In this document: positions 36,559-46,410 of the stretch, in pieces
Numbering within the stretch: position 1 is the first letter of the stretch
Layout: each line of letters opens with the position of its first letter
IMG/VR virus record: IMGVR_UViG_3300025389_000011
From: a virus
Taxonomy: Duplodnaviria; Caudoviricetes
Strand: one strand, 5' to 3'
DNA length: 64,000 nt
Translations under genes and position numbers: made by a program
Notes under the pieces: model-generated
The model's input: the letters and a program-made list of their open reading frames with translations, nothing else
The model's database searches: none
Told to the model about the DNA's origin: nothing

Positions 36559-37209
36559 ATGAGTATTAATTTATTATTTGCAACGGTTGATTTGCCACCA
36601 ATCAACAAACAACAAGCAGTTAAAGAAATAGAACCTTTACTAAACACAGATGCTGTGTTTTGGGATGCCTATAGAGAAATCAGTATGATTCCCTTAGTAA
36701 CTAAGACGGGACAACTAGGTGCTGAAAGCATATCTAATCGTCATCAAGGTGAGTTTGTTTGGGCTAGTCACACTCCTCCTACTATCAAAGAATACTTTGA
36801 CAATGTTGTGTTTCCTTGGATAGGTATGCGTAGTAGATTAATGATTCTTATCACTCAACCAGGTGCAAAGAATGCAATACACATAGACAGTAAGATACAT
36901 GAAGTGGGTACAAAGAAACATAAGTTTCGTATTGTGTTGCAAGGACGAACTGATACATTATTCTTTAGAACAAAGACAGGTGACGTTCATGTTCCAGAAG
37001 TAGACGGTGCATTCTTAATGGATGGTAGTTGGGTTCATGGTATGGACAATGAAACAGACAACGTAAAATTGACACTAGCATTGGGTAGCCCCTGGGAAGG
37101 ATTCGATGAGTATGGCCCGGAAGTAAAAATCCTTATGGACCGTAGAGACTATCAACTACCTGACAACCTCAGTCAATACGAAGAAAAACCCGGGACCGCT
37201 ACGTATTAG
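36559..37209 (+). CDS. Cupin/2OG-Fe(II) oxygenase-like
   Basis: AIHID and DGSWVHGMDN. Confidence 0.6.
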   Translation: MSINLLFATVDLPPINKQQAVKEIEPLLNTDAVFWDAYREISMIPLVTKTGQLGAESISNRHQGEFVWASHTPPTIKEYFDNVVFPWIGMRSRLMILITQPGAKNAIHIDSKIHEVGTKKHKFRIVLQGRTDTLFFRTKTGDVHVPEVDGAFLMDGSWVHGMDNETDNVKLTLALGSPWEGFDEYGPEVKILMDRRDYQLPDNLSQYEEKPGTATY

Positions 37210-37229
37210 TGTTTTGGGCAACAAAGTGT

Positions 37230-37258
37230 TTGACAATATATCAAGACTTTGCTATACT
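37230..37258 (+). promoter_or_regulatory. Sigma70-type promoter upstream of the leader/RNA island
   Basis: TTGACA-17nt-TATACT. Confidence 0.85.
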
Positions 37259-37325
37259 ACACGTAATGAATCAAAAAGGAGTACTTATTTGTACTAATTT
37301 GTAAACAGGGATAAATAACTATACT

Positions 37326-37481
37326 ATGAAACATATTAACTGTCAATTGCTGAACCATACGATAGCATCAATGCAGATGCCATTGGCAGCCTTTGAGGGT
37401 AAAAATATCCCAAGTATTCGCTGGTCATATAATGATACAAGTTTACGTAGGGGTTTCATAGCAGGAGTCAGTTACACTTAA
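37326..37481 (+). CDS. Putative attenuator leader peptide, 51 aa
   Basis: MKHINCQLLNHTIASMQMPLAAFEGKNIPSIRWSYNDTSLRRGFIAGVSYT, starting 8 nt after ATAAATA; contains the antiterminator strand 37449-37460. Confidence 0.6.
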   Translation: MKHINCQLLNHTIASMQMPLAAFEGKNIPSIRWSYNDTSLRRGFIAGVSYT

Positions 37482-37504
37482 AGTAACACTCTAACAAGTT
37501 TATG

Positions 37505-37544
37505 AAACCCCTGAAGATGAAAGTTTTCAGGGGTTTTTGTTTTT
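37505..37544 (+). terminator. Intrinsic terminator, mutually exclusive with the antiterminator 37449-37460/37501-37512
   Basis: AAACCCCTGAAGA-tgaaag-TTTTCAGGGGTTT 13-bp stem followed by TTGTTTTT. Confidence 0.9.
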
Positions 37545-37555
37545 ATGAAAGGAAA

Positions 37556-37732
37556 ATGATGGAGTATAAAAATATAGATTATACTAAATTAAACGAACAA
37601 ATTGTTAAACAGGCTTTTGCTTCCGCTAGTCAGTTCTTAACTGAAGAACAGAAACAAAAACTTATTGATGATAAGTTTAAACGTGCTGAAGCATACATCC
37701 AAGCTAGGAAAAAAATTCCTAATTTAGTGTAA
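37556..37732 (+). CDS. Small hypothetical protein downstream of the attenuator
   Basis: 58 aa with AAAGGA RBS. Confidence 0.6.
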   Translation: MMEYKNIDYTKLNEQIVKQAFASASQFLTEEQKQKLIDDKFKRAEAYIQARKKIPNLV

Positions 37733-37739
37733 CTTAGTA

Positions 37740-37956
37740 CAACGTGTGCATAGGAAACGAGGTCCTAGCCCGCACGTAAAACATGGGCAAACGGGCGGAC
37801 AGTAGGATGAAATCTGTGGCGATAACGCAGAGACTAAAATCACTGGTTGGGGTATCGACCCCAACATAACGCAAGAAATTGCGTTATTCACTAGTACTTT
37901 GTGAGAACAACGCCCTGACCCCTGAAAGGTTAAGCATAGAGTACTAATGAATAACA
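37740..37956 (+). ncRNA. Unassigned structured RNA
   Basis: Stems ACGTGTG/CGCACGT, TAGG/CCTA, TCTGT/GCAGA, GTTGGGG/CCCCAAC and a long GTTATTCAcTAGTACT/AGTACTAaTGAATAAC hairpin. Confidence 0.55.
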
Positions 37957-37960
37957 AAAA

Positions 37961-38659
37961 TTAAATACAGAATTCTTTAAAGAGTTCGTATCCTTGTTCC
38001 CATGTAGATATCTGTTCTAAGGGAAAACGATAGCTTAATCCAGCTCTATACTCTGCACCTGGTGGATAAGTTACACTATGTGGTACAGTTGGGTTTACCA
38101 AAGTTGTACAATGTCTTTTAAGTGTATATGTGTGTAAACGTTCAAAGTTATGTGCAAAGTTTACTGTTATTGGTTCTACATTACCGTACCAGCAACCTCT
38201 AATTCTAGTTCTAGGTTCGTTTGGTCTAACTGTTTTGACATCAGAATACCATTCTTTAGCACCAGCTACGTCCCACCATTTGAATTCTGCATCGGTTTCA
38301 GAAAGTTCCCAGTTGATAGAAAAGGGTATCTTTACCCATTTGCCATCAACTTCAAAAACATCACTATGAACAATGTCCGGAAAGTTAGGATATAAATCTC
38401 TACGTGCATGTCCAAATACAAGGACCCACATAGGTGTTAGATTTTTTGATTTAAAAATTTCTGATAATTCTGGATTTATAATAGTATCAATAATTTCAGT
38501 AGAGCCAACATAAAGAAATTTTCTTCCTTGTATTGGTTCTCCTTTACCAGCTGCCTTATCTGTATTGATTAAGTCAATACATGATGGATCCTTTAATGGA
38601 TATGGTAATTTTACTTCTGCTTGATATTTAGGTATAGTCATACAGTATTTATCAAGCAT
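37961..38659 (-). CDS. Cupin/2OG-Fe(II) oxygenase-like, inserted antisense within the RNA island
   Basis: IVHSD, FSINWEL, NPTVPHSV, RAGLSYRF; similar motif order to 35919-36557. Confidence 0.6.
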   Translation of the reverse strand: MLDKYCMTIPKYQAEVKLPYPLKDPSCIDLINTDKAAGKGEPIQGRKFLYVGSTEIIDTIINPELSEIFKSKNLTPMWVLVFGHARRDLYPNFPDIVHSDVFEVDGKWVKIPFSINWELSETDAEFKWWDVAGAKEWYSDVKTVRPNEPRTRIRGCWYGNVEPITVNFAHNFERLHTYTLKRHCTTLVNPTVPHSVTYPPGAEYRAGLSYRFPLEQISTWEQGYELFKEFCI

Positions 38660-38679: not shown

Positions 38680-38756
38680 GCTCCCGTAACTCAGTGGATT
38701 AGAGTACTGTGCTACGAACGCAGGAGTCGGAGGTTCGAACCCTTCCGGGAGCGCCA
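38680..38756 (+). tRNA. tRNA-Arg(ACG)
   Basis: Full cloverleaf, loop CT-ACG-AA, encoded CCA. Confidence 0.95.
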
Positions 38757-38764
38757 AAGAATAT

Positions 38765-38840
38765 ACCCTCTTCGCCAAGTTGGTAAGGCATCGGATTTTG
38801 ATTCCGACATGCGGTGGTTCGAGTCCATCAGGGGGTGCCA
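38765..38840 (+). tRNA. tRNA-Gln(TTG)
   Basis: Cloverleaf, TCGGA/TCCGA stem, CCA. Confidence 0.93.
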
Positions 38841-38841
38841 A

Positions 38842-38917
38842 GGTAATATAGCATAGCGGCTAATGCAACTGCTTCATACGCAGTCTATCGATGGTTCGAG
38901 TCCATCTATTACCACCA
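38842..38917 (+). tRNA. tRNA-Met(CAT), probably elongator
   Basis: Cloverleaf, G1-C72 paired, CCA. Confidence 0.85.
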
Positions 38918-38923
38918 ATCATT

Positions 38924-39000
38924 GCCTCAATAGCTCATTTGGTTAGAGCACCGTCTTGATAAGGCGGGGGTGCCTAGTTCGAATCTAGGTTGAGGCACCA
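38924..39000 (+). tRNA. tRNA-Ile(GAT)
   Basis: Cloverleaf, CCA. Confidence 0.95.
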
Positions 39001-39004
39001 ATAT

Positions 39005-39080
39005 GCCGATGTAGCTCAGTTGGTAGAGCACCTGTCTGAAGAACAGGGTGTCGCAAGTTCAACTCTTGCCGTCGGTACCA
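39005..39080 (+). tRNA. tRNA-Phe(GAA)
   Basis: Cloverleaf, CCA. Confidence 0.95.
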
Positions 39081-39249
39081 AACAATTCTAATTGAACAAA
39101 TTCATTTGCTAGTTCACTTGTTAGAATAGGATCAAGAACAAATTCTTTACTGTTTGTATAAGATGCACGTGCCTTATACTTTTCATCAGAAAAGTGTTTA
39201 TACAATAACATAAATTCTGTATATTCATTAGAGTTCATAATGTATTTAT

Positions 39250-39327
39250 GCCCCCGTGGACAAATTGGCAAAGTCGTTTCTCTCAAAAGGAAAAATTTTC
39301 TCCGTTCAACTCGGAGCGGGGGTACCA
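39250..39327 (+). tRNA. tRNA-Leu(CAA) with an unusually short variable region
   Basis: GCCCCCG/CGGGGGT acceptor, loop CT-CAA-AA, variable segment AATTTT only. Confidence 0.85.
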
Positions 39328-39563
39328 GTATTTCAACATCCGACCTAACGCTGGCAACAGAGGAAGTTCGGGACTTGTGGCAAGTGCGAGTGGGAGAAAT
39401 TTACTTTGTTATTTGTCTGAAATTTACTTTGTTATTTCGTTAAACCACCGTGATATAACAAGCAACACAAACAGAATCAGGTAACACTTGCACTATTGGT
39501 TCGGGTTGTGGCAAAGATTAATGTTAGGATAGAACAGAATCCCGGCTACGGGGTGTTGAATAT
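39328..39563 (+). ncRNA. rnpB: Minimal RNase P RNA (catalytic domain retained, specificity domain replaced)
   Basis: CR-I GAGGAAGTTCGGGAC (39360-74) pairs with CR-V ACAGAATCCCGGCTA (39534-48) to form P4 with a bulged U. P1, P2, P3, P5, P6, P7, P15 and P16 all pair. J5/15 CAA, AGATTAA (CR-IV-like) and L15 GGT are present. Confidence 0.9.
39396..39437 (+). repeat. 19-nt direct repeat GAAATTTACTTTGTTATTT x2 inside the RNase P RNA
   Basis: Identical copies at 39396-39414 and 39419-39437. Confidence 0.95.
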
Positions 39564-39564
39564 T

Positions 39565-39656
39565 GCCAGCGAGACTTGGAAGTCAGAGAGGTCTTATAAG
39601 CCTTTTAGCGCCAGATTAGCGTTCTTGAGTGGGTTCGATTCCCACCGCTGGTACCA
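39565..39656 (+). tRNA. Non-canonical tRNA, anticodon TAT (Ile?), long variable arm
   Basis: 7-bp acceptor, TTCGATT T-loop, CCA; 4-nt D-loop, extended anticodon stem, 5-bp variable stem. Confidence 0.65.
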
Positions 39657-39661
39657 GTTAT

Positions 39662-39737
39662 GGTGATTGTAGCTCAATGGTAGAGTCCAGGATTGTGATT
39701 CCTGTTGTTGTGGGTTCGAATCCCATCAGTCACCCCA
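39662..39737 (+). tRNA. tRNA-His(GTG) with encoded G-1
   Basis: Cloverleaf with extra G-1:C73 pair, CCA. Confidence 0.95.
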
Positions 39738-42488: not shown

Positions 42489-42517
42489 TTGACAAAATAA
42501 TTTTGTCGTGCTATACT
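42489..42517 (+). promoter_or_regulatory. Sigma70-type promoter
   Basis: TTGACA-17nt-TATACT upstream of tRNA-Thr. Confidence 0.85.
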
Positions 42518-43106: not shown

Positions 43107-43149
43107 TTGACAATAATTAAACCCTAGTATATACTAGGGTTTTGTTTTA
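43107..43149 (+). promoter_or_regulatory. Sigma70 promoter whose -10 lies inside a 24-bp palindrome followed by a T-tract
   Basis: TTGACA(43107)-17-TATACT(43130); AAACCCTAGTATATACTAGGGTTT at 43119-43142. Confidence 0.75.
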
Positions 43150-43231: not shown

Positions 43232-43403
43232 TGTTGTAAAAATACAACATCTAAGTATTTGACAAATAATCAGTTTAGTTATACAATACTTACATGAGTT
43301 GAGAAATTGATTCAGATTAATTGGTAAAAGATTGTTGTAGAAATACAAAAAATCATTTGACAATAAATCAAGGTAGTGATACAATCATTACATGAGTTGA
43401 GAA
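43232..43403 (+). promoter_or_regulatory. Two tandem sigma70 promoters, each with an upstream TGTTGTA-N4-TACAACA-type palindrome
   Basis: TTGACA 43259 / TACAAT 43282 and TTGACA 43357 / TACAAT 43380; both followed by ATGAGTTGAGAA. Confidence 0.85.
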
Positions 43404-45254: not shown

Positions 45255-45389
45255 ATGGCTAATGTAAAGCAAGGCAATTTAACAAAGAGTCCTCAATGGT
45301 GGAAACATCTTAAGGATTGGAAGCGTGTGTTCTGGAAATCAGAACGACAAGCACAAAAGAGAGAAATCAAGGTTGACAACAATACCTAA
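45255..45389 (+). CDS. Small basic Trp-rich protein (44 aa)
   Basis: AGGAG RBS; MANVKQGNLTKSPQWWKHLKDWKRVFWKSERQ. Confidence 0.65.
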   Translation: MANVKQGNLTKSPQWWKHLKDWKRVFWKSERQAQKREIKVDNNT

Positions 45390-45489
45390 TTGTTGTATAA
45401 TAATTTTTTAAACGAAAGAGGTAATGACATGAAACGAAGTAAACGATAGTGTCATTCTTAGACTTCCAAGTATGGTCTAGGGATGGCAC
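45373..45489 (+). promoter_or_regulatory. Sigma70 promoter + micro-ORF MKRSKR + 15-bp hairpin upstream of two tRNA-Lys genes
   Basis: TTGACA 45373 / TATAAT 45396; GAGGT RBS; ATG 45429 to TAG 45449; hairpin 45449-45489. Confidence 0.6.
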
Positions 45490-46381: not shown

Positions 46382-46410
46382 TTGACAAATTGATATTGAC
46401 ATGATACAAT
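46382..46410 (+). promoter_or_regulatory. Sigma70-type promoter
   Basis: TTGACA-17-TACAAT upstream of tRNA-Leu(TAG). Confidence 0.8.

Follow-up and report, generated by a model that had tools for sequence, protein, structure and literature searches.

What is a short open reading frame that uses all 20 amino acids, and that ends next to an intrinsic terminator, doing at the head of a tRNA-gene island? To our knowledge, the regulation by phages of their own tRNA genes is largely unknown, and the locus described here lies exactly at the head of such an island in a large uncultured lake phage. The window (the whole 64,000-nt stretch of this Caudoviricetes virus that was analysed) had been read in an earlier note, made from the letters alone, as carrying a leader-peptide attenuator. 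We followed up this reading in the window and across a family of homologous loci. We conclude that the cassette is probably a ribosome-mediated leader-peptide attenuator of the trp type, generalised to all amino acids and heading the tRNA island.

The cassette is encoded on the + strand. It begins with a sigma-70 type promoter, P1 (37230..37258; TTGACA-17-TATACT with a TG before the -10 element), which the earlier note had located correctly and which matches the consensus at 11 of 12 positions; TTGACA-N17-TATAMT is found at the same spot in all aligned relatives. Downstream, 9-10 nt before the ATG, lies a 5'-UTR motif (37306..37317) that reads CAGGGATAAATA in the window and CCAGGACTAAATA in most relatives, and the ATAAATA noticed before does start at 37311. 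The leader ORF (37326..37481) has 51 codons whose translation comprises all 20 amino acids, as had been claimed, and which use 25 of the 28 tRNA classes of the phage. Codons 42-45 (AGGGGTTTCATA, 37449-37460) are, again as first read, perfectly complementary over 12 bp to TATGAAACCCCT (37501-37512). Together with flanking bases these codons make up segment A (37448..37461), the 5' strand of the antiterminator, where two G.U pairs flank the 12 perfect ones. Its partner is segment B (37500..37513), used in the antiterminator with A and in the terminator with segment C. A two-tier hairpin (37464..37492; GGAGT/ACTCT and GTTAC/GTAAC, stems that covary) caps the antiterminator and holds the TAA stop codon (37479-37481) in its apical loop. 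The intrinsic terminator (37504..37545) is present and overlaps the complementary segment as the earlier note had it, but the 13 bp assigned to it (37505-37536) were too few: the stem has 15 pairs (37504-37537), closed by a GAAA loop and followed by the U-tract TGTTTTT.

Homologous cassettes were found on 25 IMG/VR contigs, retrieved by the upstream gene, the peptide and an exact 22-mer of a downstream structured RNA, and on 120 metagenome contigs, mostly from lakes, retrieved by a 5'-UTR pattern that biases the set to leaders with the standard UTR motif and is blind to segments A, B and C and to the peptide. A profile of 19 leader peptides gave 164 protein matches. With 211 distinct homologous leader peptides of 44-59 aa, the cassette is a conserved family, and more than 200 relatives keep its design. 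The order of parts is the same in all loci: the TTGACA-N17-TATAMT promoter comes first, then a 5' UTR with the nearly invariant CCAGGACTAAATA at its end, followed by ORF, terminator and tRNA genes. No relative was found by blastn or tblastn in deposited phage genomes, and the leader, the first downstream gene (ORF2) and the neighbouring genes had no match in Pfam or PHROGs. The genomes that host the cassette are those of freshwater phages of about 350 kb, and it is single-copy in a 352-kb and a 360-kb genome, both rated 100% complete. The 352-kb genome has 34 tRNAs, of which 33 follow the leader directly as one same-strand island; across the family, tRNAs lie at most 2.5 kb downstream of the leader in 74 of the 76 loci with enough sequence.

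No element of the cassette is better conserved than the 5'-UTR motif in its 13-nt form CCAGGACTAAATA. Each of 22 loci has this motif once, and the form present in the window occurs there only once. The motif includes AGGA, which lies further from the ATG than a normal Shine-Dalgarno sequence would, as well as CTAAATA, which resembles T4-type late promoters. Similar heptamers precede some genes and tRNAs; the extended 13-nt motif is confined to the leader cassette. No canonical Shine-Dalgarno sequence was seen near the leader ATG, and no recognisable polymerase pause hairpin.

Substitutions between close pairs of leaders carry a clear coding signature. Differences number 236, 161 and 460 at codon positions 1, 2 and 3, respectively (460 of 857 at the third position), and 390 of the 768 changed codons are synonymous, against 378 non-synonymous. 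In one relative (L001), all five of the isolated single-base changes in the ORF are at synonymous third positions. Given that substitutions fall mainly on third positions, this pattern indicates that the leader ORF is translated.

The amino-acid content of the peptide is more unusual. The earlier note had cautioned that 20/20 coverage in so short an ORF can arise by chance, a caveat that the family dismisses: all 20 amino acids are present in 197 of 211 distinct peptides (93%), and each of the remaining 14 is without exactly one. The expected frequency is 1-4% in gene windows of this phage's proteins, 9-30% even under uniform composition, and 25% when the family's own column profile is sampled. 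Permutation of the alignment columns gave a mean of 51 all-20 peptides out of 211 and a maximum of 66. The observed count is far above this column-based expectation, and the excess therefore represents compensation within sequences. More specifically, the usual place of the single Trp is G(L/M)WS, but the window's clade has it in IRWSY, a second clade in SWAFEG and a third close to the C-terminus. Cys, also single, is normally residue 6 and occurs at six other places, including a PSIC that replaces PSIR, and the single His has been relocated four times or more. Mapped on a tree of 110 leaders, the column set providing the residue changes at least 7 (Trp), 15 (Cys) and 16 (His) times, counts to be taken as upper estimates as some alignment shifts are included. 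Single-copy Cys, Trp and His have thus been moved repeatedly without being lost, which argues for selection on completeness as such. By comparison, ORF2, about as long and from the same loci, mostly has 16-17 distinct amino acids. The leader contains no tandem or clustered runs of cognate codons; all 20 amino acids are present instead, many of them in single copy. Judged by this comparison of homologues, the amino-acid completeness of the leader is a selected and conserved property, and it is the strongest result of our analysis.

Coverage of tRNA classes was assessed in the same leaders. They use on average 25.2 of the 28 tRNA classes of the window's phage (range 23-27), compared with 18.2 +/- 3.3 in gene windows (99th percentile 24). 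Each of the two isoacceptor classes of Ser, of Gly and of Ile is read in 85-100% of leaders, and so is each of two among the three classes of Leu (anticodons TAA and TAG). When the peptide was fixed and its codons resampled, 22.9 classes were obtained versus the 25.2 observed (mean P 0.1). An enrichment of tRNA diversity in codon choice, beyond the amino-acid level, is accordingly modest and suggestive only.

We then considered the RNA structures in which the end of this ORF takes part. The terminator is well supported across the family: 97.9% of cells in its alignment are paired, three pairs are compensatory, and none of 500 shuffles reaches the covariation score. In L001, for instance, an A-U pair of the stem is replaced by G-C. 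The competing helix is also beyond chance expectation. None of 5000 shuffles of the ORF contains a 12-nt perfect complement to the terminator arm (maximum 11, mean 5.6), and RNAduplex gives -20.9 kcal/mol for A:B in the window, with a z-score of -4.8 against shuffles. In the predicted fold of a nascent RNA ending at 37516, a 14-15-bp A:B helix encloses the hairpin with the stop codon, and in the predicted fold of the full leader the terminator forms. The two structures are therefore mutually exclusive, in agreement with what had been proposed from the overlap of the two arms.

The leaders fall into two classes according to the sequence of segment A. In class I, to which the window belongs, A lies in the codons for (R/G)(G/S)FI(E/A) and its partner is (T)TATGAAACCCCTGG. 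In this class 79.8% of A:B cells are paired, versus 26-54% when the partner is slid, and in all 39 of 39 sequences the duplex beats every upstream window of the ORF (p <= 0.01 against shuffles). The mean duplex energy is -23 kcal/mol, compared with -20 kcal/mol for the terminators. The core of the class I helix is nearly invariant, with a double change in register in only one pair, and part of the complementarity could therefore reflect a coding constraint on the F-I-E motif. Compensated variants are GGGGCTTC/GAAGCCCC in the clade of L016 and AGGGTTCTTAG/CTAAGAACCCT in L026, and in L010 A and B form an unrelated, three-part duplex.

Class II peptides end in PGTR or PGTE, unlike those of class I. 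Here A consists of CCCGGGG and of TAGGTAA, which includes the stop codon, and pairs with CCCTGGG and TTATCTA. The helix has 88.5% of its cells paired; the pair 62-96 is G-C in 38 sequences, A-U in 14 and unpaired in none, and none of 500 shuffles reaches the observed covariation score. A small subgroup whose peptides end in PGG has a weak A:B duplex (-10 to -16 kcal/mol). An alignment of homologous leaders, which had been put forward earlier as a test, thus finds both the ORF and the pairing conserved, with compensation that is clean in class II and limited in class I and with a weak duplex in the PGG subgroup. The stop codon is placed within the antiterminator in both classes: 26 of 39 class I sequences have it in the apical loop of the capping hairpin, and 53 of 62 class II sequences in the A:B helix itself; its distance to the terminator stem is 25 nt in the window and similar in relatives.

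Two further features of the leader were noted. In class I, the start-codon region CTATGAAA can pair with TTTCATAG, and this pairing was considered as a trp-like 1:2 protector helix. It was rejected: it shows no change where A changes (L021, L026) and has no class II counterpart, and the untranslated RNA folds into A:B. Separately, among the codons for P-S-I-R (37407-37421), AGT ATT CG(C/T) are nearly invariant at synonymous positions in both classes. No helix was found that contains them, and they could represent a pause site or an arrest-related signal.

Downstream of the terminator, the first gene is ORF2 (37556..37732, + strand), which encodes a conserved 58-aa protein predicted to form a two-helix hairpin; its AlphaFold model is a plain two-helix hairpin with a mean pLDDT of 74, without a match in the protein atlas. 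It is followed by a structured RNA of ~200 nt (37745..37950, + strand) with 48 predicted pairs, 23 of them with compensatory changes. This RNA has no match in Rfam and contains the 22-mer GGGCGGACAGTAGGATGAAATC common to the 25 IMG/VR contigs. The first tRNA block (38680..39737, + strand) comprises eight tRNAs, the first being tRNA-Arg, and a small RNase P-like RNA. The latter weakly matches archaeal RNase P RNA in Rfam (39332-39560; 35 bits, E 3e-7, below the cut-off) and is located between tRNA-Leu and a tRNA-Ile-like gene, and GAGGAAGTTCGGGAC occupies the matching place in L001.

In the window, an antisense gene of 232 aa (37961..38659, - strand; no match in Pfam or PHROG) does separate the attenuator from the first tRNA, as the earlier note had warned, and lies between the structured RNA and that tRNA. 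It is present in L006 as well and absent in L001 and L057, where the structured RNA starts 65 nt and tRNA-Arg about 297 nt after the terminator. This distribution marks the antisense gene as a recent, lineage-specific insertion.

Promoters past the terminator bear on what the cassette may control. A consensus sigma-70 promoter, P2 (TTGACA-17-TAnAAT), is located 17-38 nt past the terminator in 61 of 76 relatives; the window's clade is without it. P2 (TTGACA-17-TAGAAT in, e.g., L014, L020 and L016) overlies the start of ORF2, such that the ATG lies in the spacer and the -10 hexamer doubles as codons for (I/L)-E-(Y/L). Wherever P2 and ORF2 occur together (40 of 40 loci), the ORF2 start codon is upstream of the predicted transcription start of P2; in these loci, ORF2 is therefore translatable only from transcripts that have read through the terminator. 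Within the tRNA island of the window, six further sigma-70 promoters matching at 11-12 of 12 positions were seen (42489-42517, 43107-43135, 43259-43287, 43357-43385, 45373-45401 and 46382-46410), several of them directly preceding tRNA blocks, and no further leader-ORF cassette was seen in this island. With P2 in most relatives and later tRNA blocks served by promoters of their own, read-through can only add to tRNA transcription, and the attenuator is thus not the sole control of tRNA supply. The controlled output may mainly be the small protein, the structured RNA and the first tRNA block, of which ORF2 may be the most specific output while the RNA genes get an added contribution.

The comparison with trp/his-type attenuation drawn in the earlier note holds well for the geometry of the cassette, with a family-wide promoter, a coding signature, a covarying terminator, a kept antiterminator and a position at the tRNA island. 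We infer from this geometry that read-through depends on translation of the leader, in a sense and with physiological triggers, tRNA shortage included, that would be as follows. The leader peptide would serve as a panel with at least one codon per amino acid and a codon for nearly every phage-encoded tRNA species. Upon transcription from P1, segment A, in the last codons of the ORF, would pair with B to give the antiterminator capped by the stop-codon hairpin; with A:B formed there would be no B:C terminator, and polymerase would go on to transcribe ORF2, the structured RNA and the first tRNA genes. Should a ribosome finish the panel on time, it would unwind A and sit on the stop codon, B:C would form, and transcription would terminate. 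If the ribosome were absent or late, A would pair with B once B emerges, resulting in read-through. In both classes a terminating ribosome would have to dismantle the antiterminator, yet would be too far away (about 25 nt) to hinder the terminator stem. As no trp-like protector helix was found, the circuit would be a three-segment race between ribosome and polymerase.

In such a race, a delay anywhere in the roughly 37-40 codons before A would keep the ribosome off A and cause read-through, and possible causes of delay are a missing or cleaved tRNA, amino-acid starvation or generally slowed elongation. When only residues 5 or more codons ahead of A are counted, the set of 20 amino acids is already complete in 77 of 117 class I peptides, and 36 more reach 19, usually missing the Glu that sits at the 5-codon cut-off; in the window's leader, the only Val codon is codon 48, after segment A. 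A more far-reaching version, which we hold to be possible if somewhat improbable, is that the leader is a 'tRNA audit', with roughly one codon per tRNA species read in a race with RNA polymerase. Loss of any single host tRNA, through anticodon nucleases, other tRNA-targeting defences or host shut-off, would then lead to read-through and to production of ORF2, the structured RNA and extra phage tRNAs, making the cassette a universal detector of attacks on translation.

Other explanations of the same locus were weighed against this attenuator. The leader could encode an ordinary small phage protein, the hairpin being the terminator of its gene and A:B a by-product of the resemblance between A and the 3' arm of the terminator. 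Conserved peptide motifs (PSIR, GSFIEG) together with the coding signature would fit such a gene, as would the scarcely varying class I core and the promoter past the terminator that many relatives have. We nevertheless consider it quite unlikely: an ordinary protein would have no reason to regain a lost Cys, Trp or His elsewhere, or to retain the full set of 20 in 93% of 211 variants where its column profile predicts 25%. In addition, class II, with its unrelated C-terminus, still has an A:B helix with clean compensatory pairs, the non-coding TATG/TTAT upstream of the terminator stem is conserved only as partners of A, and no Pfam or PHROGs family matches the peptide. The response might also have the opposite sign, efficient leader translation giving read-through, for example by a ribosome that hinders the terminator or by transcription-translation coupling, and stalling giving termination. 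Coupled ribosomes can suppress termination elsewhere, for example at pyrBI. Here, however, 25 nt separate the stop codon from the terminator stem downstream, so that a terminating ribosome cannot cover the stem, and the untranslated nascent RNA folds into the antiterminator, which makes this arrangement very improbable.

A sensor whose output acts in trans deserves separate mention. According to this explanation either the peptide itself or the ~270-nt leader RNA released at the terminator would act elsewhere, like rnTrpL/peTrpL of Sinorhizobium, and read-through would be secondary. Trans-acting sRNAs and leader peptides derived from attenuators have indeed been described (PMC6614838, PMC7298713). 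The strong promoter just past the terminator in most relatives, which makes control in cis partly redundant, and the extreme conservation of the 5'-UTR motif also speak for it. Against this, an output in trans leaves the conserved antiterminator and the stop codon within it without explanation, and ORF2 is translatable only from read-through in 40 of 40 loci that have P2 and ORF2; we take it to be quite improbable as the main function.

Returning to the attenuator acting in cis, several points make it of wider interest. A classical attenuator responds to a single amino acid or to a few, and relative to this the replacement of cognate codon runs by an all-20 panel is new. A full-text literature search, whose scope takes in few subscription journals, returned neither a description of phage tRNA genes controlled by a leader peptide nor a leader selected to contain all amino acids; we also know of no report of selection for every amino acid in leaders of the bmrB-bmrCD type discussed below. 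That single-copy residues have moved again and again is an unusually clear mark of selection acting on codon content and not on protein structure. A leader under selection to include each amino acid, and almost all tRNA classes, would amount to a general sensor of decoding capacity, and it provides a directly testable, simple model of a virus that monitors the host translation apparatus and responds. It would link phage tRNA islands to tRNA-targeting host defences and, as a compact natural part of about 300 nt, would report global translation speed. If the 'tRNA audit' were true, a universal detector of translation attack would have been built from a classical attenuator.

The cassette shares with the enterobacterial amino-acid attenuators (trpL, hisL, thrL, ilvL/ivbL) a promoter, a short translated ORF, an antiterminator strand whose availability would depend on the ribosome, and a terminator that shares one strand with it. 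In both, slow decoding would lead to read-through, as established for the enterobacterial systems and inferred for the phage cassette. The differences are that the enterobacterial leaders have tandem runs of cognate codons whereas the phage leader has about one codon per amino acid, that the phage cassette is without a clear 1:2 'protector' helix, and that the former precede biosynthetic enzymes while the latter precedes a tRNA island, a structured RNA and a small protein. Rfam leader models had no match on the phage leader (His_leader, 17 bits against a 49-bit cut-off).

T-box riboswitches are similar in that terminator/antiterminator control ties expression to tRNA charging. They bind uncharged tRNA directly and without translation, whereas neither a specifier loop nor a T-box sequence occurs in the phage cassette; assignment of the leader to the T-boxes or to a different known RNA family was rejected, with no Rfam match at E <= 10 in 37200-37980 except noise around the terminator. 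Closest in logic is bmrB-bmrCD of Bacillus subtilis, a leader attenuator that senses translation stress: a leader ORF of ~50 codons senses general ribosome slowing, not one particular amino acid, and operates an antiterminator/terminator switch (PMC4191407). Systems of this type control bacterial drug-efflux or resistance genes, whereas the cassette described here heads the tRNA genes of a phage.
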